Positions 3,001 through 59,028 of a stretch of DNA of 64,000 bases are shown here, one piece after another. The notes under the pieces are model-generated. The model did not search any database. It had not been told where the DNA came from and saw nothing but the letters and a program-made list of their open reading frames with translations. The stretch's first letter is position 1; every line of letters starts with the position of its first letter. Source of the DNA: an uncultured cyanobacterium (GTDB taxonomy: Bacteria; Cyanobacteriota; Cyanobacteriia; Cyanobacteriales; CAWUOF01); assembly GCA_963744145.1 (NCBI GenBank), contig CAVUSO010000001.1, positions 4,000,001 to 4,064,000 on the forward strand. Direction: 5' to 3'. Both the position numbers and the translations under genes were made by a program.

Positions 3001-4300
3001 CCTCTATAGAACCTGGAGATAAACCTGTAAGTTGAGTAAAAAACTCTTCCGCATTTTCTAGCGTTGCGGAAAGTCCAGTAAATTGCACTTTTTTATCAAT
3101 TAACTTCTGCCATCTTCGTAGTAAATAAGCAACTTGTGCCCCATGTATTCCCGTATAAGTATGCACTTCATCCAGCAATACCATGTGGGGAGGTTTAGAT
3201 GTATTAATACCAAAAACATGATTATATTTAGAATCTCCTATTGATCGATTCAGCATTTCTGTAGTGGTAAATACTAAATCAGGGGGAGTTTTTGCCATGC
3301 GATCGCGTGTTAAGATGACCTCATCTTCCGCAACTGCACAACCGCAAGATTGATTAATACAAAAAAGCCGTTCTTTACCTCCTTCTACATCTTTCCTTCG
3401 CCACAACAATTCACCCCCACAGCGAGGACATCGCAAATAAGAACAGATAAATCCCTCTACTTTAGATTCCCATTTCTTTTGTAATTCTTCCACACTTGCT
3501 TTTCTGGGAGTCTGACCAAAAAAAGCGCCGATCAAAACTTTACACTTACCCTCAGCTTGGAGAACAGCATCTAAACGACGCGCTTCGATGTAAGTTTCTG
3601 AAAATTGGTCTTTTAGGAGTTCATTGCGTGGATAAATTGCTAGCACTTTACTCCAATACTCTGGGTTTTTAACCAATCCTGAAATATGCGCTAATGCTGG
3701 CAAATAAAATGCCAAAGTTTTCCCCGTTCCCGTTCCCGCACAAACAATCATCCCCCGACTTTTGGTGCTGTTTAAATCCCGCAGCATCCGGATCGTAGCG
3801 CGTAACTGAAAATCTGCTAGTAAGAGTTGACCACGTTGTGGAGAACAGAGAATTGCCGCGATCGCTTTTTGGCGAATGGGAGTGAGTAATTTTTCTGTTT
3901 CCAGTTGTGCGATTGCGCTTTCTAGTGAGATATTGCGATCGGGATAAACTCTAGGACGAATTTGAAAACGATAATCAGCAACAAGAGTTGGCGCAGTTTG
4001 CCAATTATTACTCGGAAAAAGTTGACGTAGACGAGCAAATAATCTCACCGATTCTGCCATCCGAGTGCGAAAAACACGGCGACCTCTAAGATTAAGATCG
4101 AACAGTAAATGGCTTTCTTCAATTAAATCATCTAAAAAATTCCAAACATTTATATCACTCTCCTGATTAGCTAGAAACTCTTCAGCTAGCTCTTCAATTT
4201 CACCTTCTGAGAAACCACCATCAACTACTCCCCAACTCAACAGTTTGGCTTCCTTACTTTCCAGAAGATTAAGAAATTCTTGAATTAATTGCTTTATCAT
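1..4300 (-). CDS. dpdJ: DpdJ-like large DEAD/DEAH-box helicase, 3'-truncated by the window edge (>1430 aa); absent from the ORF track
   Basis: Hand translation from ATG at 4300 gives MIKQLIQEFLNLLESKEAKLLSWGVVDGGFSE; Walker A MIVCAGTGTGKTLAFYLP near 3700-3750 is in the same frame; LDEVHTY, VATASLEVGYND and QRKGRAGR follow; the frame is open at position 2; lies downstream of dpdE-I. Confidence 0.85.
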   Translation of the reverse strand, partial: MIKQLIQEFLNLLESKEAKLLSWGVVDGGFSEGEIEELAEEFLANQESDINVWNFLDDLIEESHLLFDLNLRGRRVFRTRMAESVRLFARLRQLFPSNNWQTAPTLVADYRFQIRPRVYPDRNISLESAIAQLETEKLLTPIRQKAIAAILCSPQRGQLLLADFQLRATIRMLRDLNSTKSRGMIVCAGTGTGKTLAFYLPALAHISGLVKNPEYWSKVLAIYPRNELLKDQFSETYIEARRLDAVLQAEGKCKVLIGAFFGQTPRKASVEELQKKWESKVEGFICSYLRCPRCGGELLWRRKDVEGGKERLFCINQSCGCAVAEDEVILTRDRMAKTPPDLVFTTTEMLNRSIGDSKYNHVFGINTSKPPHMVLLDEVHTYTGIHGAQVAYLLRRWQKLIDKKVQFTGLSATLENAEEFFTQLTGLSPGSIEEISPGDNQIAEGMEYQLVLRGDPVSGTSLLSTTIQASMLLRRILDPANYPPSNGLYGSRLFVFTDDLDVTNRLFHNLLDAEGRDSWNRPLPKKQPLAVLRKHGAANSSDRLIAGQSWLLCEEIGHSLQTPLKIGRTSSQDLGVEQNSDIIVATASLEVGYNDAEVGAVIQHKAPRDMASFLQRKGRAGRRRIMRPWTVVVLSDYGRDRLAYQAYDMLFNPILEKRSLPIANRYVLRIQGVFALMDWVAQQLATGAPKGSVWNDFASPPYFRDRQHKIINLIENILENKEEQRNLEAFLRSALHINQDEVDSILWEPPRALMMAVLPTLLRRLKSGWKRIPSYTGESEQDYQVPFSPLPDFVPQNLFSDLLLPEVTITTPAQTRYSEEDINQMPIVQALKTFTPGRVSRRFGVQHIYASHWIAPPNLQEKEQQFPVENYCAELEELGYFQLWRDGQVVDIRCVRPWEFKPVQIPQNISNTSNAQLEWCSQIVPYDPGIKLELPQGSSWCEIMEEVRCFTHSQQCPVEVRRFAIASRANLRIQQVKQYRELDTIIRFTQRQDGSPASVGFSQFVDGLVFRFRISRNFRISSSDPNREKIQSFRTAYFRNLVLTDTRLCEFTNVFHRDWLYQIYLSMLTACALQEQIPLAEAFENLSNKNIGEEMAIVLENIFQTLNVDETLLEAEENSEPDSTQRQRVHDRLLTLCNKDTVQTILNDLAPVLWSEPNREWDEWAILRFKATLGGALLDACQHLCPQFDAVDLLLDIDSGPRPSDAVGIPEEIAEIWITESTIGGGGTIEEIVRRYAADPANFFRLAMTALEPSDFEIIDGELTRLLELTQTNVAVVDAVGGFRSARGYAELKQASDRLRKVLSFEGILVTHSVMTAINARILRPGSNQETDKLLLDLIQLWHKEEERLGIEIDARVFAYIASSKDDLERALVHLGLIQPNPYWRFQVIYGLLWARGNVVRSRALSSYNPFVVLPDADRELLVDVLQVDERQV

Positions 4301-20856: not shown

Positions 20857-20885
20857 GCCTCACCATAATGGTGGGGCTTTTTGTT
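20857..20885 (+). terminator. Probable intrinsic terminator
   Basis: GCCTCACCAT-A-ATGGTGGGGC hairpin plus T run; near-identical hairpin at ~21730-21756. Confidence 0.6.
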
Positions 20886-20895
20886 GGAGTTAAAT

Positions 20896-21029
20896 CAATA
20901 CGGTTCGGTTAAGTGTAGGGGCGAAGCATTCGGGTGATAATTGAATGCTCAAACGAGTAATACTAGACCCGAATGCTTCGCCCAACTTCCGTCGATATCT
21001 CCCAAAATATTCTTAAACGAACCGTATTG
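20896..21029. repeat. MITE/REP-like palindromic repeat
   Basis: Terminal inverted repeats CAATACGGTTCGGTTAAG / CTTAAACGAACCGTATTG enclosing GTAGGGGCGAAGCATTCGGG...CCCGAATGCTTCGCCC. Confidence 0.8.
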
Positions 21030-30387: not shown

Positions 30388-30690
30388 TTCGACTACGCCC
30401 CCTTCGACTACGCTCAGGGTAAACTCAGGGTAAACTCAGGGTAAACTCAGGGTAAACTCACGGGACACCTAACCCCCAACCCCCTTCCCTACTAGGGATA
30501 GGGAGCGATGATGATCCTTGCTCCCCTTTCCTCTTAGGAGAGGGGTTGGGGGAGAGGTCGATCCGCGCGATCGCTGGTATTATGGTTCGTTATTGATCTT
30601 TCCTAGCAGAAGATGGGTGAAGCATGAGGGGATAATATTCTCGTTCGATTGTTCAATTTTCACCCTCATGCTTCACCCCTACACTTAACT
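30388..30690. repeat. Cluster of small cyanobacterial dispersed repeats
   Basis: CCCTTCGACTACGCTCAGGGTAA followed by 11-bp ACTCAGGGTAA tandem copies; CCTAACCCCCAACCCCTT...AGGGGTTGGGGGAGAGG palindrome; GGGTGAAGCATGAGGG...CCCTCATGCTTCACCCCTAC REP-like unit. Confidence 0.8.
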
Positions 30691-30718
30691 GAACATTAGG
30701 CTGAAAAATTAATTTTAA

Positions 30719-49341: not shown

Positions 49342-51174
49342 ATGACAGCAAATCCTCATGACATCGTTCCAGCCCATCTAGCAGTACAAGCAATGCGTGA
49401 TAATGGCTACAGGAATGCCGCTTACGCGATCGCTGAACTGATGGACAACTCAATCCAAGCAGGTGCTACTCATGTCGAGTTACTCTGTGCAGAGAAAAAA
49501 GAATTAGTCAATTCTAGACAACGCTCGCGCATCCATCAAGTCGCTGTCTTGGACAACGGTTGTGGTATGGATGCTAGCGTATTGCGGATGGCATTGCAGT
49601 TTGGAAACGGTACTCATCTTAACGAAGCTGATGAAAATCGTGGAATTGGACGTTTTGGGATGGGACTACCTTCTTCATCAATTTCTCAATGCCAGCGTGT
49701 CGAAGTTTGGTCTTGGCAAGAAAGCCCAGAAAATGCCCTTTATAGTTACCTTGACCTCAATGAAATTCGTCAAAGGCGGATGACTGAAGTACCTGAACCA
49801 CAGCTAAAAGCAGTTCCTCATCTCTGGTTGAAAGTAGGTAAATATTTTGAGAGCAGTGGCACCCTAGTCGTTTGGTCGAATATTGATCGTTGTATTTGGA
49901 AAACAAGTAACTCAATTATTGATAATTCTGAACTGCTTATTGGCAGGATGTACCGAAAATTCTTAAATAGCGGTCAAGTTGAGATTCGGATGTTTGCATT
50001 TGAGATAGATGATCTAATCCCCATCGTTAATGAGAAAAAAGCTCGACCCAATGACCCTGGTTATCTGATGGCAAAAACCTCTTGCCCTAAACCCTTTAAC
50101 GAAATCTCAATGTTCCAACCTTGGGGAGATGAGGATCAGTATGAAGCCATCGTCACAATTGATTTTCGGGGTAAGTCCCATGAAGTCAAAGTTCGCTACT
50201 CCTATGCTAAAGAAGAAGCTAGACTAACTGGTAAGCGTGGTAGTAATCCAGGTGAACAACCGCACGGCAAACACGCTGCTAAAAACATTGGTATTTCCCT
50301 TGTACGAGCAGATCGAGAATTAGAACTAGATCAAGAGTTAGTCATTAAATATGATCCAGTAGAACGCTGGTGGGGAGTCGAAATTGAGTTTCCACCAGGA
50401 CTAGACGATTTGTTCGGCGTAACTAATAACAAACAAACAGCACGGAACTTCACTGAAATTGCTAAGTTAGATATAGAATCCCTTTTAGGAAATGATAAAA
50501 CTATCATTGAACTTAAAGACGAACTAAAAGAAGACGAAGATCCAAAAGGTCCTCTACTAGAACTTGTAATGAAAGTAGATGCACAACTTAAAATTATCCG
50601 TCGTTTACTGAAAGCACAGACTAAAGGTACTCGCGGCACTGATGAGAAGCGCTATAAAGAAGTTTCTGAAGAAAAAGGAACTTATAAAACAGGAACTCGC
50701 AAACAAGAAGGCCATAAAGGCGGAAGCGATAAAGATGAATCACTACCCAAAGAAAAGCGTGAAGAAGTCATTAAGGATGCTTTAGTCAAGCAGGGCGTAG
50801 CTGAAATTAGAGCTAAGGAACTCGCGGCAACTACTGTCGATAATGGACTCAAGTACACTTTTGCTGAAACTGACATAGAAACTGCTGCTTTCTTTTCCGT
50901 CACACCAAGAGGTGGTAGTATTATTATCATGCTTAATACTAACCATCCAGCTTACAAAAATCTTATGGAAATTTTAGCAGAAGAGGTAGAAGGAGTTGAC
51001 GTAGAAATCTTACGCGGGCGTTTAACTAACTCCCTGGAAGGATTGAAATTACTTTTGATGGCATGGGCGCGTTATGAAGACGAACAACCAGATGGAAAAA
51101 GAAAACAAGCCGCTCAAGATGCCCGAGTTGACTGGGGAAGAATCGCGCGACAATTCCTAGAAACTGAAGAATAG
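49342..51174 (+). CDS. GHKL (HATPase_c_3/MORC-like) ATPase 2
   Basis: AIAELMDNSIQA, LDNGCGM, GRFGMGL, GTLVVW. Confidence 0.87.
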   Translation: MTANPHDIVPAHLAVQAMRDNGYRNAAYAIAELMDNSIQAGATHVELLCAEKKELVNSRQRSRIHQVAVLDNGCGMDASVLRMALQFGNGTHLNEADENRGIGRFGMGLPSSSISQCQRVEVWSWQESPENALYSYLDLNEIRQRRMTEVPEPQLKAVPHLWLKVGKYFESSGTLVVWSNIDRCIWKTSNSIIDNSELLIGRMYRKFLNSGQVEIRMFAFEIDDLIPIVNEKKARPNDPGYLMAKTSCPKPFNEISMFQPWGDEDQYEAIVTIDFRGKSHEVKVRYSYAKEEARLTGKRGSNPGEQPHGKHAAKNIGISLVRADRELELDQELVIKYDPVERWWGVEIEFPPGLDDLFGVTNNKQTARNFTEIAKLDIESLLGNDKTIIELKDELKEDEDPKGPLLELVMKVDAQLKIIRRLLKAQTKGTRGTDEKRYKEVSEEKGTYKTGTRKQEGHKGGSDKDESLPKEKREEVIKDALVKQGVAEIRAKELAATTVDNGLKYTFAETDIETAAFFSVTPRGGSIIIMLNTNHPAYKNLMEILAEEVEGVDVEILRGRLTNSLEGLKLLLMAWARYEDEQPDGKRKQAAQDARVDWGRIARQFLETEE

Positions 51175-52102
51175 CCAAAAAAATTGTGATTATACCGGGA
51201 ATTCAATTAGAAAAGATTTGTACAGAAGCCTATAAGGAAATTCTTCTTGTTGCTCCTTTTATTAAGGCTTCTGTTCTTAAAAAATTACTTACACAAATAT
51301 CTTCTGAAGTCACCATAAAATGTGTTACCCGCTGGCAACCTGAAGAGATTATTGCAGGTGTGAGCGATTTAGAGGTATGGTCTTTGCTTAAACAACGTCC
51401 TCAATCTTTTCTTTGGTTAAGACCCAACTTACACGCTAAATATTACCGTGCTGATGAACAATGCTTAGTGGGTTCAGCTAATTTAACAGCGAAAGCTTTG
51501 GGTTGGTCAAAGCTATCTAATCTTGAACTAATGATTCAATTACCTGCTACTCAAGGAAATTTCCAGACTTTTGAAACCGAACTTTTCCAAGGTTGTATTC
51601 AGGTTGATGAGAATTTGTTTGAGCAAATGTCAACAACAGTGCAGCTATTAACTGCACAATTTCTCAAAAATTTGTCTATTATTAGTATCATTTCTGATAG
51701 TTTAGCAGAAGATTCAGATATTACAGAAATTTGGCTCCCTAGTTTGCGAAATCCAGAAAATTTGTATTTAGCCTATTCGGGACAAGAGGATAGATTGACT
51801 TTAATATCACGGGATGCAGCTGCTCAAGATTTGCGATCGCTATCTATTCTTCCTAATCTAACGAAAATAGCTTTTATATCTTATGTAGGAGTTATTTTAC
51901 TCCAAAAACCTATCATTCAAAAAATAGATTCCTTTGTTATAACACCGCAGACATTTGGTGCTGTAAGAGATTTATTAGCATCTCTTTCTTGTGCAAAGTT
52001 ACCAAATTTTCAAGCTGATCGCGCTTGGCAAACATTAATGCGTTGGTTACTATATTTTCACCCTAATCAAAACACTTAATCAATGCACAGTATTCAGGCA
52101 TT

Positions 52103-52125
52103 AAAAAACCACCTAGGTAGGTGGT
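52103..52125 (-). terminator. Intrinsic terminator after the IS110 recombinase
   Basis: Minus strand ACCACCT-ACCT-AGGTGGT followed by a T run. Confidence 0.7.
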
Positions 52126-52139
52126 GCCAAACAATACAG

Positions 52140-53420
52140 TTACATTCTACACAAAATCCTAAACAGCAATCGCATGGCGTAATTAATTAGTTGTGATCGA
52201 GCTAATCTTATTGGTGTTTTGTTAATTTTCATCTCATCAAATTTCTTATGCAATGCAATGTTCAGAGGTAACGTCTCCATCACTGTAATCCACTTACCAT
52301 CAGGTTTACCGTTCTCCCTGAACTGATAACCTTTCTCTACTTGGATATTGCAGTGCTTTACCCTAGCGTGCTTGATTTCAATCCTAGTGAAGCACCATTG
52401 AAACAACGCGGTTTTACAAATATCAGAACCACCGCTACTCACTTTATTTTCTAAATCTCCTGAGCTTTCTTCTCTAGGAGCGCAGCCTAAGCCTTTCAGG
52501 AAACGTGCCAAAGACAGATGGCGCTTAGTATTTCTCTTTTCTCCTGGGTAGAACTTAACATCTGGTTTACCGTCTACCAAATAGTTCTCGATCGGAAAAA
52601 CCTGACTGATCAAGATTGACTGAATCCTCAAGCCAAAGCCAAATTCTTTAAAAACTTTCCGATATTTGTCAAACCTGACATCTTCCAGTAGCAGCGATCG
52701 CAGTTCTCGTTCGATTACAATCTCCTCTTCCTGAATCCCGCAGATCCGTTCAGCGTGCCGTCGCACATCGTCTTTCAATCCAGATCCACCAGTTGCAGCG
52801 TAAAGGCGATCATATTTGGCTGATTTCTTCTTGCCTGCTATCCACGCCCAAAGCAAAGGTAAATTTTCTCCTTCTGGTAATCGGCGTGAATTGATCAATG
52901 CTGCTTCAGGAAATTGCCATGCTAGCTTTTGTCTAGCGTAATTGATAATTGGACTTTGCACCCTATTGAGGTGTGCAAGTTGCAGCACTAGCTCTCGAAT
53001 TCGCACAATTGTGAAATCTCTAACTTGCAAGAATTCTCGATTATTATCTCCGTACTGCATCCCGTAAAGTGCTAATGCAAGAGCGTCGTTAGTATCTTTC
53101 TTATCAGGAAGTCTTAAAGCTTTCCGGTGTTCTTTTAACTTCTTGTGATCAACTAACCTAAGTTCTATCCCAGCACGAGCAAGATGAGTTGACCAAAGCT
53201 TTAGGTAGTTCACCCCCGTTGGTTCTGCTACGGCGATAACATCAGAGCGATCACCAATAAATTCCAACAACAGTTTCAGTCCATGTGAATCTGCATGGAA
53301 AATTTCAAAGTGCTTCTTAGACCTAGCGTATGCTATAATGTCAGCAGGTTTTTCTAACAATAAGCACACGGTCACAGTTGCCTTTGATACGTCCAATCCA
53401 AGGTAACGTTTATTATTCAT
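52140..53420 (-). CDS. IS110 DEDD recombinase/transposase
   Basis: YLGLDVSK, AEPTG, KKDTNDA (DEDD); C-terminal GCAPREESSG catalytic-serine motif; ATG 53420 (or TTG 53444). Confidence 0.92.
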   Translation of the reverse strand: MNNKRYLGLDVSKATVTVCLLLEKPADIIAYARSKKHFEIFHADSHGLKLLLEFIGDRSDVIAVAEPTGVNYLKLWSTHLARAGIELRLVDHKKLKEHRKALRLPDKKDTNDALALALYGMQYGDNNREFLQVRDFTIVRIRELVLQLAHLNRVQSPIINYARQKLAWQFPEAALINSRRLPEGENLPLLWAWIAGKKKSAKYDRLYAATGGSGLKDDVRRHAERICGIQEEEIVIERELRSLLLEDVRFDKYRKVFKEFGFGLRIQSILISQVFPIENYLVDGKPDVKFYPGEKRNTKRHLSLARFLKGLGCAPREESSGDLENKVSSGGSDICKTALFQWCFTRIEIKHARVKHCNIQVEKGYQFRENGKPDGKWITVMETLPLNIALHKKFDEMKINKTPIRLARSQLINYAMRLLFRILCRM

Positions 53421-53454
53421 TTTTCGCTTAGGTGATATTGCCAAAATCTCATCT

Positions 53455-53680
53455 CTGCGGTTTACGAATCACCCAAAAACCCAATGTTAAACACGAGTTT
53501 GATTCACCCTTAAAACCATTAATTAGAGAGAGATTAAGTTGAGTTATGAGTAGCCGAGTTTATGAAAATAGAAAAACCCTAAAGAGTTTGTTTCTTCCTT
53601 AAAACCCTAAGTTACTCTTATCCAACTGCAAGAAGGTTTGGAAGCTTCCTGCTACCTCCCCAGGGGAGAGGTTTCGTCTA
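53455..53680 (-). ncRNA. Putative IS110 bridge RNA
   Basis: Two homologous loops with shared scaffold; guide segments match the target (53591-99, 53564-70) and the IS ends (53503-10, 53468-75); boundaries approximate. Confidence 0.7.
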
Positions 53681-53971
53681 GTGGCTAACTAGACTCATCA
53701 GGAAGGTCTAAAACTCAGCGTTCATTTCTATGGGGTGAGGTAAATCATCAGGTTAGTCCTCATCATCATCAGGGTGATCCTGGTCTACGACGGTATAACC
53801 TTCTAGAGTTATGTCCTCGACTTCAAATAAGTTACTAGGTATCTCGTCATAATGCTCATCTGGGTGATCATTTTCTTCCTAATCGTTATGCTTTATCAGT
53901 TCCTAATTACTCTGAAGTATTTTACCGACTCAAAACTAACAAGTAGTTTATTTAAGTAACATAGGCAAAGT

Positions 53972-55379: not shown

Positions 55380-55830
55380 CGAGGGCAAAGCATTCCGGTC
55401 ATAGTTTTCTTCATTTAGGCAATCACTGATCTGCCGGAATGCTTTGCCCCTACAGACCCGGACAAAATTCTGTTCATGTTTTATTTAGGTTCGCTATAGA
55501 GCAATACGGTTCAGTTATCTGTAGGGGCGAAGCATTCGGGCGATCATTTATTGCTCAAGTTCGTTAATATTATATCCGAATGCTTCGCCCTTCTGCGCCG
55601 ATATCTGTAGGGGCATAGCATTCGGGCGATCATTTATTGCTCAAGTTTTACCCTGAGCGAAGTCGAAGGGCCGTTAATATTATATCCGAATGCTTCGCCC
55701 AGTTCTGCTGCGCCGATATCTGTAGGGGCGAAGCATTCGGGCGATCATTTATTGCTCAAGTTTTACCCTGAGCGAAGTCGAAGGGCCGTTAATATTATAT
55801 CCGAATGCTTCGCCCTTCTGCGCCGATATC
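55380..55830. repeat. REP-like palindrome cluster including three tandem units
   Basis: TATCTGTAGGGGC(G/A)..GCATTCGGGCGATC...CCGAATGCTTCGCCC units at 55516, 55602 and 55717; units 2 and 3 carry TTACCCTGAGCGAAGTCGAAGGG. Confidence 0.88.
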
Positions 55831-58753: not shown

Positions 58754-59010
58754 GTAGGGGCAAAGCATTTCGGCGCATAAATAAATAATTAAACGTTTAC
58801 CCTGAGCGTAGTCGAAGGGAAGAATAATAAGACCGAAATGCTTTGCCCCCATATTTAAGCAACCAACAGATCAACTACATACTATATATATTGCAATATG
58901 GTTCAGTTAAGGATATTTTTGAGCATCTCGGCGCAGAAGAGGGTGAAGCATTCGGGTATAATATTACTGCTTTGATTGTTCAATTATCGCCCGAATGCTT
59001 CACCCCTACA
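58754..59010. repeat. REP-like palindromic repeats
   Basis: GTAGGGGCAAAGCATTTCGG...CCGAAATGCTTTGCCCC and GGGTGAAGCATTCGGG...CCCGAATGCTTCACCCCTAC. Confidence 0.8.
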
Positions 59011-59028
59011 CTTATCAACTTAAGGGAA

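Follow-up and report, generated by a model that had tools for sequence, protein, structure and literature searches.

A predicted bridge RNA, with a putative hammerhead ribozyme directly upstream of it, in an IS110-family element of an uncultured cyanobacterium

A 64-kb stretch of DNA from an uncultured cyanobacterium, hereafter the window, contains an element of the IS110 family with two similar segments in its left non-coding end, ahead of the recombinase gene. The segments share a scaffold and differ in their variable arms, which raises the question of whether this end encodes a bridge RNA, the guide RNA that pairs with target and donor DNA in such elements, and how an RNA of this kind would be made. 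As set out below, the segments very probably form the guide (bridge) RNA of an IS110-family element inserted in the 3' end of a PLD-family gene. This agrees with a preliminary description of the locus made from its letters alone, which had proposed an IS110-type bridge RNA in the left non-coding end with the order target loop, donor loop, recombinase; the proposal is now backed by homologous RNAs from 68 relatives, covariation of the stems, covariation of guides with flanking DNA and a matching protein fold. A hammerhead ribozyme predicted directly upstream of the bridge RNA is an addition to that description.

Guide RNA, element ends and flanking DNA

The RNA read from the minus strand consists of two copies of one module, in which an outer stem leads to an internal loop whose two arms are variable, and this in turn to an inner stem capped by a small loop (Table 1). 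On the plus strand the scaffold segments read GAGTTTG[TTTCTTCCT]TAAAACC (53584-53606) and GAGTTTG[ATTCACCCT]TAAAACC (53495-53517), with partner arms at 53555-53579 and 53460-53482; all strings quoted in the preliminary description lie where it had placed them. The outer stems are GGGUUU/AAACUC in the first loop and GGUUU/AAACC in the second.

Relatives of the locus were collected by a scan of one genome per species, which gave 260 loci of which 80 were kept (L001-L080), cyanobacterial wherever the organism is given. Their upstream regions are built like that of the window: scaffold positions are constant and arm positions vary. When a covariance model is made from 68 relatives, with the window left out, it finds one strong match in the 64 kb (53458-53630, minus strand, full length, 102.6 bits, E 1.5e-22), the next best reaching 9.6 bits. 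As this model owes nothing to the window and the ends of the element were fixed independently, the agreement between RNA and DNA described below is more than chance. RNAalifold, applied to 69 sequences, recovers a long enclosing stem and both stems of each loop, with compensatory change in 22 of 38 pairs; the long stem around the target loop, already described in the preliminary account, is thus recovered by RNAalifold as well as by the covariance model. The homologues were also subjected to the folding and covariance check which that account had suggested, and the structure comes through it. In a MAFFT alignment of the 69 sequences that was not fitted to the structure, a structure of 33 pairs has 95.7% of its cells paired (87.6% when shuffled) and both-side, compensatory change in 21 of 33 pairs, and its covariation score of 0.299 compares with 0.152 for shuffled and at most 0.117 for slid controls; none of 500 shuffles reaches the observed values. 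Scanning the window region and 12 loci with Rfam gave no family at or near its cut-off.

The ends of the element were set by restoration of the host gene, independently of the guides. The interrupted open reading frame (ORF) is of the PLD family (297 aa, 51186-52079, plus strand) and reads into the element, while its homologues are 298-335 aa long among the 119 listed, the closest listed being 314 aa with 80% identity. Just past the element, positions 53875-53946 of the plus strand translate to LPNRYALSVPNYSEVFYRLKTNK*, which matches the C-termini of PLD homologues of 314-320 aa; the five that were compared end in ...RWL[LR][YHF]FL[RP].RY..[ST][VT]PN[YH]SE[VI]FYR.... Excising 52057-53872 in silico rejoins a full-length PLD-family gene including this conserved C-terminus, which confirms both the insertion and its site. 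On the minus strand, the left flank terminates in TAGGAAGAA, the element runs from 53872 to 52057 with AGGGTGAA as its last letters, and the right flank opens with AATAT. Because the repeat GAAAAT occurs at both junctions, the crossover is ambiguous within 6 bp; GAA, which lies inside this repeat and flanks the element on both sides, is probably the core, a trinucleotide. A repeat scan found no long inverted repeats at the element ends. For annotation, the window copy counts as an ordinary insertion; it truncates a PLD-family gene next to an MzaB-like ATPase.

The guides can be read against these ends. In the first loop, the left-target guide AAGGAAGAA is identical to the left flank TAGGAAGAA at eight of nine positions. 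The preliminary description had counted nine of nine; the match is present, but in register it is 8/9, and AGGAAGAAA gives nine contiguous matches to the left half only when one A of the scaffold is counted. The right-target guide, read as its complement GAAAATAG, agrees at seven of eight positions with GAA followed by the right flank, so that the complementarity of the 3' arm to core and right half, which had also been claimed, holds in register. In the second loop the left-donor guide AGGGUGAA is identical to the right end of the element AGGGTGAA over 8/8 positions, and UGGGUGAU (53475-53468) in the 3' arm is complementary over 8 nt to ATCACCCA in the left end. The donor loop thus matches both ends, as had been proposed, but its left-end match lies 5 nt out of register. 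From the donor arms one would expect inverted repeats, GGGTGA / TCACCC, with the core in common; in the actual ends the 8-nt matches would be 4 nt apart.

The same relationships can be followed in the relatives. For the right-target guide, the 5 nt predicted to follow GAA were compared with the right flank at the 63 loci with a single right-end candidate: five of five agree at 42 loci and four at 13, i.e. four or five at 55 of 63, with three or fewer at eight. Over 59 unique pairs the mean is 4.29 matches against 1.47 +/- 0.14 after permutation (maximum 1.88 in 1,000). The left-donor guide was compared with right ends defined without the donor loop, as a unique GAA plus the predicted 5 nt, and here the arm equals the 5 nt before the core at 41 of 44 loci. 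Most read AGAGT, and the variants covary (GGAGT in L072, AGACT in L081), the window having AGGGT in both arm and right end; of the exceptions, L016 and L035 are one position off each and L068 is probably a false site. In a plasmid copy (CP150887.1; bridge RNA 92.2 bits, hammerhead 76.7 bits) the right end TAGACTGAA matches its own guide and the right flank GTTGT is exactly as the guide predicts. L069, a compact relative that has no ribozyme, has the left flank GAAGTAGA adjoining its left end, 8/9 to its own left-target guide. The covariation of guides and flanks, which had been suggested as a check on homologues, is therefore borne out for the right-target guide (55/63) and the left-donor guide (41/44), while the left-target guide shows no enrichment in the relatives' flanks. 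Taken together, these sequence comparisons fit the bridge-RNA model of Durrant et al. (2024), in which, according to the available text (PMC11208160), the bottom strand is bound by the left guides and the top strand by the right guides, the core being part of all four pairings.

Table 1. Coordinates of the predicted features of the element, its RNA and its insertion site in the 64-kb window
Feature	Position	Strand	Details or basis
Whole IS110-family element, 1,816 bp	52057..53872	-	Ends ambiguous within 6-bp direct repeat GAAAAT
Copies of the repeat GAAAAT	53875-53870 and 52059-52054	-	Element junctions
Left target half plus core, TAGGAA + GAA	53873..53881	-	8/9 identical to 5' arm of first loop
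Right target half AATAT	52052..52056	-	Directly after core GAA (52059-52057); 3' arm of first loop predicts GAA+AATAG, 7/8
Outer left end	53709..53872	-	Terminal ATCACCCA site (53868-53861), second ATCACCCNGATGA copy (53778-53766), start-less open frame
Type I hammerhead ribozyme (predicted)	53653..53708	-	Model match, motif parse
Hammerhead, 5' parts		-	Stem I 5' strand 53708-53702; core CUGAUGA 53701-53695; stem II 53694-53676; GAAA 53675-53672
Hammerhead, 3' parts		-	Stem III 53671-53655; cleavage triplet GUA 53655-53653; predicted cut 53653/53652
P0 hairpin, conserved loop UCCAAA	53628..53652	-	At predicted processed 5' end; shares bases with hammerhead stem I 3' strand
Two-internal-loop RNA	53630-53458	-	Covariance-model match
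P1, long stem around target-binding loop	53536..53627	-	53627-53611 with 53555-53536; RNAalifold, covariance model
Target loop, parts		-	Outer stem 53607-53602 / 53561-53556; left-target guide 53600-53592; inner stem 53589-53584 / 53579-53574; right-target guide 53571-53564
Donor-binding loop	53459..53517	-	Covariance model, structural covariation, match of left-donor guide to element end
Donor loop, parts		-	Outer stem 53517-53513 / 53463-53459; left-donor guide 53510-53503; inner stem 53500-53496 / 53482-53478; right-donor guide 53474-53466
Recombinase ORF	52140..53420	-	426 aa from ATG at 53420; upstream TTG at 53444 gives 434 aa
Right end	52057..52139	-	Terminator-like hairpin 52125-52108; left-donor site AGGGTGAA 52064-52057

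The recombinase and related systems

The recombinase matches PF01548, the N-terminal DEDD domain of IS110 proteins, with 35 bits against a cut-off of 29. Residues D10, E66, D106 and D109, which we take by analogy to be the DEDD tetrad, and the motif S320-G321-D322 are invariant among 25 aligned sequences, and PF02371, the C-terminal domain, matches 25/25 relatives at E <= 1 (best 2.5e-5). A sequence-profile search of the PDB found no chain. An AlphaFold2 model was compared by structure: with a mean predicted local distance difference test score (pLDDT) of 80.5, it has ISCro4 (9t56) and IS621 (8wt9, 8wt6) as its ten best listed Foldseek matches, with E 7.7e-10 to 2.2e-8 and about 14% identity. 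As modelled, the protein has the fold of the IS621 and ISCro4 bridge recombinases. The matches next in line are Nop5/56/58, TasR and RuvC, an order in agreement with the evolutionary links proposed in the accessible portion of PMC11213020.

Among 8,000 candidates scored, 706 proteins are related at E <= 0.001; the best of them, apart from the protein itself, share 49-52% identity over the full length, all names given by the sources are cyanobacterial, and the 90% cluster of the window protein has a single member. The distinct cyanobacterial clade suggested in the preliminary description is thus supported, with nearest proteins about 50% identical and cyanobacterial by name where a name is given, PF02371 below its cut-off and no PDB chain found by a sequence profile. 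The same description had singled out the length of the protein. The 426-434 aa stand, but what lengthens the window protein is an insertion of 28 residues, and the recombinases of the relatives range over 392-438 aa.

Comparison with IS621 (available text of Durrant et al. 2024, PMC11208160, and Hiraizumi et al. 2024, PMC11208158) shows a shared plan: the RNA lies in the left end, 5' of the recombinase, with two internal loops of which the target loop comes first; in each loop the left half plus core recurs in one arm, and the other arm is complementary to core plus right half; the core is part of all four pairings, the recombinase fold is the same and there is a short inverted repeat made up of the donor halves (GGGTGA / TCACCC here). 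Unlike IS621, for which the text at hand speaks of a 'core dinucleotide', the core here looks like the trinucleotide GAA. The window protein of 426 aa has about 14% identity to IS621 in a structural alignment and is invisible to a PDB sequence profile. The window RNA possesses an additional 5' hairpin as well as a long stem that encloses it, and comes after a predicted hammerhead, and most relatives lie in larger mosaics. In IS621 a sigma-70 promoter is rebuilt across the joined ends (PMC11208160) and expression from integrated copies is weak (PMC11208160; PMC13626964), as far as the available parts of these articles describe it. ISCro4 (PDB 9t56) is the best structural match of the predicted protein (E 7.7e-10, template modelling score 0.52 on target length), from which it differs by an identity of 14-15% and about 100 extra residues in the window protein. 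IS622 is the subject of a preprint, 10.1101/2025.05.14.653916. The IS1111 group with its seekRNA uses the same enzyme family and the same guide logic, with the RNA in the right end, downstream of the gene; here, by contrast, the RNA is upstream of the recombinase gene. A survey of bridge RNAs (10.64898/2026.10.21.760802, available part) was made beside recombinases having both Pfam domains, and this clade would tend to fall outside it because the filter demands both.

The predicted hammerhead ribozyme

Upstream of the bridge RNA, window and relatives have one layout in common: CUGANGA, a hairpin opened by G-C, GAAA, a second hairpin closed by A-U, and then GUC or GUA, with stem I formed by the 4-5 nt before the core paired with nucleotides after the cut. 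A hammerhead model built from 32 relatives, the window again being left out, has a single match in the window (53625-53708, minus strand, 47.4 bits, E 2e-8) and matches 71 of the 80 loci at E <= 0.01; at least three of the nine loci without a match have less than 140 nt upstream before the contig ends. The motif is also present in the plasmid copy (L081:11765-11846). A strict parser accepted 53 of 74 cases, one of them spurious. In the 52 usable copies the core is CUGANGA in 49 and has C at position 4 in three, and the triplet is GUC in 47 and GUA in five.

Covariation was counted on a model-fitted alignment that leans toward the fitted structure, in which 87.9% of cells are paired against 68.6% when shuffled and the score is 0.461 against 0.134 for shuffled and at most 0.101 for slid controls, with none of 500 shuffles reaching the observed values. 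In the same fitted alignment stem III is 97.9% paired with compensatory change in 5/7 pairs, stem II 88.1% paired with compensatory change in 5/5, and stem I 79.4% paired with compensatory change in 2/5; further stem I swaps are found in the window and L081. A pseudoknot is indicated by complementarity of the 5 nt before CAA in P0 to the loop of stem II, the pairs seen being GAGUC/GACUC, GAUUC/GAAUC, GUGUC/GACAC, GGGU/ACCC and, once, GACUC/GAGUC. This complementarity is perfect in 25 of 51 loci and extends over at least 4 nt in 37 of 51; of the 40 unique pairs 16 show it in full, where permutation gives 6.1 +/- 1.8 (maximum 13 in 1,000).

The predicted cut falls 45-54 nt before the target loop in 51 of 52 parsed cases, the exception being L075 with 35 nt. 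The conserved P0 hairpin follows the cut at once and lends its 5' bases to stem I as the 3' strand, so that cleavage of a longer transcript of any kind would free a bridge RNA whose 5' end is both defined and folded. In the relatives the ribozyme begins at, or a few bases from, the stop codon of a preceding ORF, which suits the processing of a guide out of a polycistronic message.

With type I hammerheads (RF00163; RAGATH-1 hammerhead, RF03152) the motif shares the CUGANGA ... GAAA core, the A-U closing stem III, the GUC/GUA triplet, three helices with an open stem I, and a tertiary pseudoknot from loop II to the stem I side. It differs from the Rfam hammerheads by scores far under their cut-offs, by a stem I of 4-5 bp whose 3' strand doubles in the next hairpin, by an insert between A9 and stem II in about 20 Nostoc copies, and by its genomic partner, the bridge RNA. 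The Nostoc inserts (e.g. L025, L028, L037-L039, L042, L046, L051) are 28-57 nt long and form one or two extra hairpins, and these copies often have no pseudoknot; the palindrome GCGATCGC occurs in many Nostoc stem III and insert sequences. A search of the full-text literature, with bioRxiv supplements outside its scope, found no report linking a natural hammerhead to a bridge RNA. A separate part of 10.64898/2026.10.21.760802, as far as it is available, describes a divergent hammerhead-like cluster of 152 loci, with no genomic context stated there, which may or may not be this motif.

Genomic setting, alternatives and meaning

Most relatives lie in larger mosaic elements and not in compact insertion sequences. 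Copies with different targets have in common a stretch of more than 1.3 kb that holds small genes and precedes the RNA module, and the neighbours of the CP150887.1 copy include ParM/StbA and mobilisation genes. From these sequences, the module of bridge RNA and recombinase looks like the integration unit of larger elements. In this it resembles the cargo-bearing 'expanded' IS110 loci of a recent preprint (10.64898/2026.08.14.744561), which, according to its available text, keep one recognisable boundary match: small genes lie upstream of the relatives' module, and a guide match is recognisable at one boundary only. The cargo differs, consisting here of small phage- or plasmid-like ORFs and there, in the text available, of resistance genes; the words ribozyme and cyanobacteri- are absent from that preprint. 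More than 1 kb upstream of the ribozyme is shared, with mosaic breakpoints and small ORFs, within L002-L006, L020/L035/L040, L066/L067 and L081; several of the upstream small ORFs carry a PDPSWDYY-like motif, and small ORFs are also found between the recombinase gene and the right end in relatives. Downstream of the recombinase homologue of L080, at 3237-3258, there is a CRISPR-repeat-like match to RF01318 (30.2 bits, below the cut-off of 40).

A sequence of events can be proposed for the element in the window. The left end would be transcribed on the minus strand, and the type I hammerhead would cut the transcript between 53653 and 53652, freeing an RNA headed by P0 and carrying the two internal loops followed by the recombinase reading frame. 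The first loop would pair with the target halves, one arm being identical to TAGGAA-GAA and the other complementary to GAA-AATAT, and the second loop would pair likewise with the two ends, right joined to left, of the element in its excised circular form, so that the DEDD/serine recombinase could exchange strands at the shared GAA core. We infer from the sequences the transcription, ribozyme cleavage, RNA-protein binding and recombination in this scheme, as well as the roles of the left-target and right-donor guides.

Several observations weigh against the bridge-RNA reading and its ribozyme. In the window, the right-donor site (TCACCC) sits 5 nt farther from the GAA core than expected from the register that the other three guides share, and the left-target and right-target matches have one mismatch each. 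In the relatives, left-target matches with up to two mismatches within 700 nt upstream occur in 26 of 66 loci against 26.6 after permutation, i.e. without enrichment, and the right-donor guide GGGTGATTC (arm GGGUGAUUC) is identical in all 69 aligned rows. PF02371 reaches 13.7 bits in the window protein, below its cut-off of 21.3, and the 28-residue insertion, near the C-terminus, is mostly of low confidence in the model. The Rfam models align to the hammerhead below their cut-offs, RF00163 with 12.9 bits (34) and RF03152 with 14.4 and 15.3 bits (56.3); these alignments come from narrow scans, and wider Rfam scans gave no hammerhead match. In the window hammerhead a C-U mismatch interrupts stem I and the pseudoknot is missing; core and stems II and III are kept. 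For these reasons it may be weak. A simple promoter scan found no sigma-70-like promoter on the minus strand upstream of the ribozyme, the only candidates being weak ones (8 of 12) that span the in-silico end-to-end junction. Finally, a single copy of the element is visible in the 64-kb window.

For two of the guides, the relatives themselves set the limit. The left-target guide depends on the window and L069 because the left ends of the other relatives appear to fall outside the 1.5-kb flanks. No enrichment of forward-strand left-target matches was found in the 60 nt before the relatives' ribozymes (4.06 against 4.09 permuted), and a search for 9-mers with a single mismatch up to 1.3 kb upstream gave scattered matches only. 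The right-donor guide hardly varies among the compared relatives and cannot for that reason be assessed by covariation; for its sole variant, GGGAGATTC (arm GGGAGAUUC) in L071 and L077, no left end was found. ATCACCC, the right-donor site that would be predicted, is missing upstream in 76 of 80 loci, the four matches do not lie beside guide-like flanks, one-mismatch matches to GAATCACCC in relatives are uninformative, and the left end of the CP150887.1 copy was not found within 12 kb. Placing the relatives' left ends at the 5' edge of the hammerhead was considered and rejected, since copies with different targets have more than 1 kb upstream in common. The reverse complement of the left-target arm plus core is seen upstream of the ribozyme in L048 (9/9, about 16 nt before the hammerhead) and L049 (8/9), and also in L025 and L022; over 66 loci the mean longest match of this kind is 4.24 against 3.94 +/- 0.10 permuted.

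A wider model can be put forward tentatively, at somewhat short of even chances. In it, the bridge RNAs of this clade would be made by a built-in hammerhead and not only from a promoter rebuilt in the circle; the ribozyme would cut the guide from any read-through transcript, including cargo mRNA, and leave a 5' hairpin that also forms the pseudoknot; the module would be the right-end integration unit of plasmid- or phage-like mosaics, and the 5' edge of the ribozyme would descend from the original left-end donor site. A 13-nt pattern, ATCACCCNGATGA, is found at 53856-53868 and 53766-53778 (minus strand), 90 nt apart and both in the left end, with two occurrences in the window against 0 expected by chance, and it links the right-donor site to the start of a hammerhead core. 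This arrangement suggests an ancestral left end that started at the ribozyme and was later duplicated. A start-less open frame (about 53755-53878, minus strand) enters the left end from the flank and has an acidic tail, ...DQDHPDDDED*, just before the CCUGAUGA motif; it looks like the remnant of an upstream cargo ORF because it resembles the junctions of acidic tail, stop and hammerhead in L017 and L041.

The RNA in the window could be a true bridge-RNA homologue in a copy that is itself a stranded, immobile relic, whose guides record the last insertion and which neither excises nor re-inserts. This is unlikely on balance, although much of what was just listed speaks for it: the right-donor site 5 nt out of place, a left-end terminus duplicated within the left end, the flawed stem I and missing pseudoknot, the insertion in the recombinase, the one visible copy together with the single-member protein cluster, and the promoter scan that found none. 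Against this stand an intact reading frame with all invariant residues of catalytic type, an RNA that is full length against both the bridge-RNA and the hammerhead model, and stems that are all intact; moreover, IS110 elements are reported, in the available text of 10.64898/2026.08.14.744561 and 10.64898/2026.08.31.748434, to tolerate half-matched ends. Sequence evidence on the mobility of the window copy is therefore two-sided, with a displaced donor site, a duplicated terminus and a weakened ribozyme set against an intact frame and RNA.

A real hammerhead could also do another job, ending or destabilising the upstream cargo mRNA or controlling expression of the recombinase, which is less probable still. 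Its place in relatives, at or within a few bases of the upstream stop codon, would suit such a role, as would the bridge RNAs that have no ribozyme (L069, L054, L055). Processing of the guide better accounts for the near-constant distance from cut to target loop and for the cut directly before P0, for the fact that the window element, compact and lacking a cargo gene upstream, has kept the ribozyme, and for the part that P0, the first helix of the processed RNA, takes in a covarying pseudoknot. That the modules are a structured leader regulating the transposase and have no guide function, in keeping with what was thought of IS110 non-coding ends before 2024 (Durrant 2024, available text of PMC11208160), can hardly be true, because a leader does not predict variable arms that track flanking DNA (63 loci) and the right end of the element, and is contradicted by them.

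Around the bridge-RNA element, some further features were seen. The ATPase gene (49342-51174, plus strand) directly before the PLD gene (51186-52056 + 53873-53946) matches the defence protein MzaB with 64.5 bits, and an intact PLD homologue has weak matches to ZacB and DrmC; by these matches a candidate defence locus of two genes may have been cut short by the insertion. Another exact copy of TAGGAAGAA lies at 51847-51855 (minus strand) in the same gene, 200 bp away, with a right half TAGAT that mismatches the guide; the 9-mer occurs three times in the window against 0.93 expected. The terminator-like hairpin in the right end is followed by a T run and lies 15 nt past the recombinase stop. A megablast search of the element against plasmids gave no match. 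Repeats of 55-75 nt with a GTAGGGGCGAAGCATTCGGG-like core on both strands (20878-20952, 55484-55759, 30640-30694 and 58941-59014) are unrelated to the element.

Judged by sequence, the RNA belongs to the known bridge-RNA type, and what appears to be new is the clade-wide ribozyme, the three-base core and the setting of the relatives in larger elements. Bridge recombinases are under development as programmable genome-writing tools, and the natural production and trimming of their guides is understood only in part. A conserved fusion of ribozyme and guide occurring in nature, if true, would provide a defined processing route and a compact self-processing cassette for expression from any promoter. 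The divergent recombinase clade, with its three-base core and target arms of 5+6 nt, would add a candidate for programmability. These findings may also explain the widespread annotation 'IS110 family transposase' in cyanobacteria, where such genes would often be the integration module of larger mobile elements.

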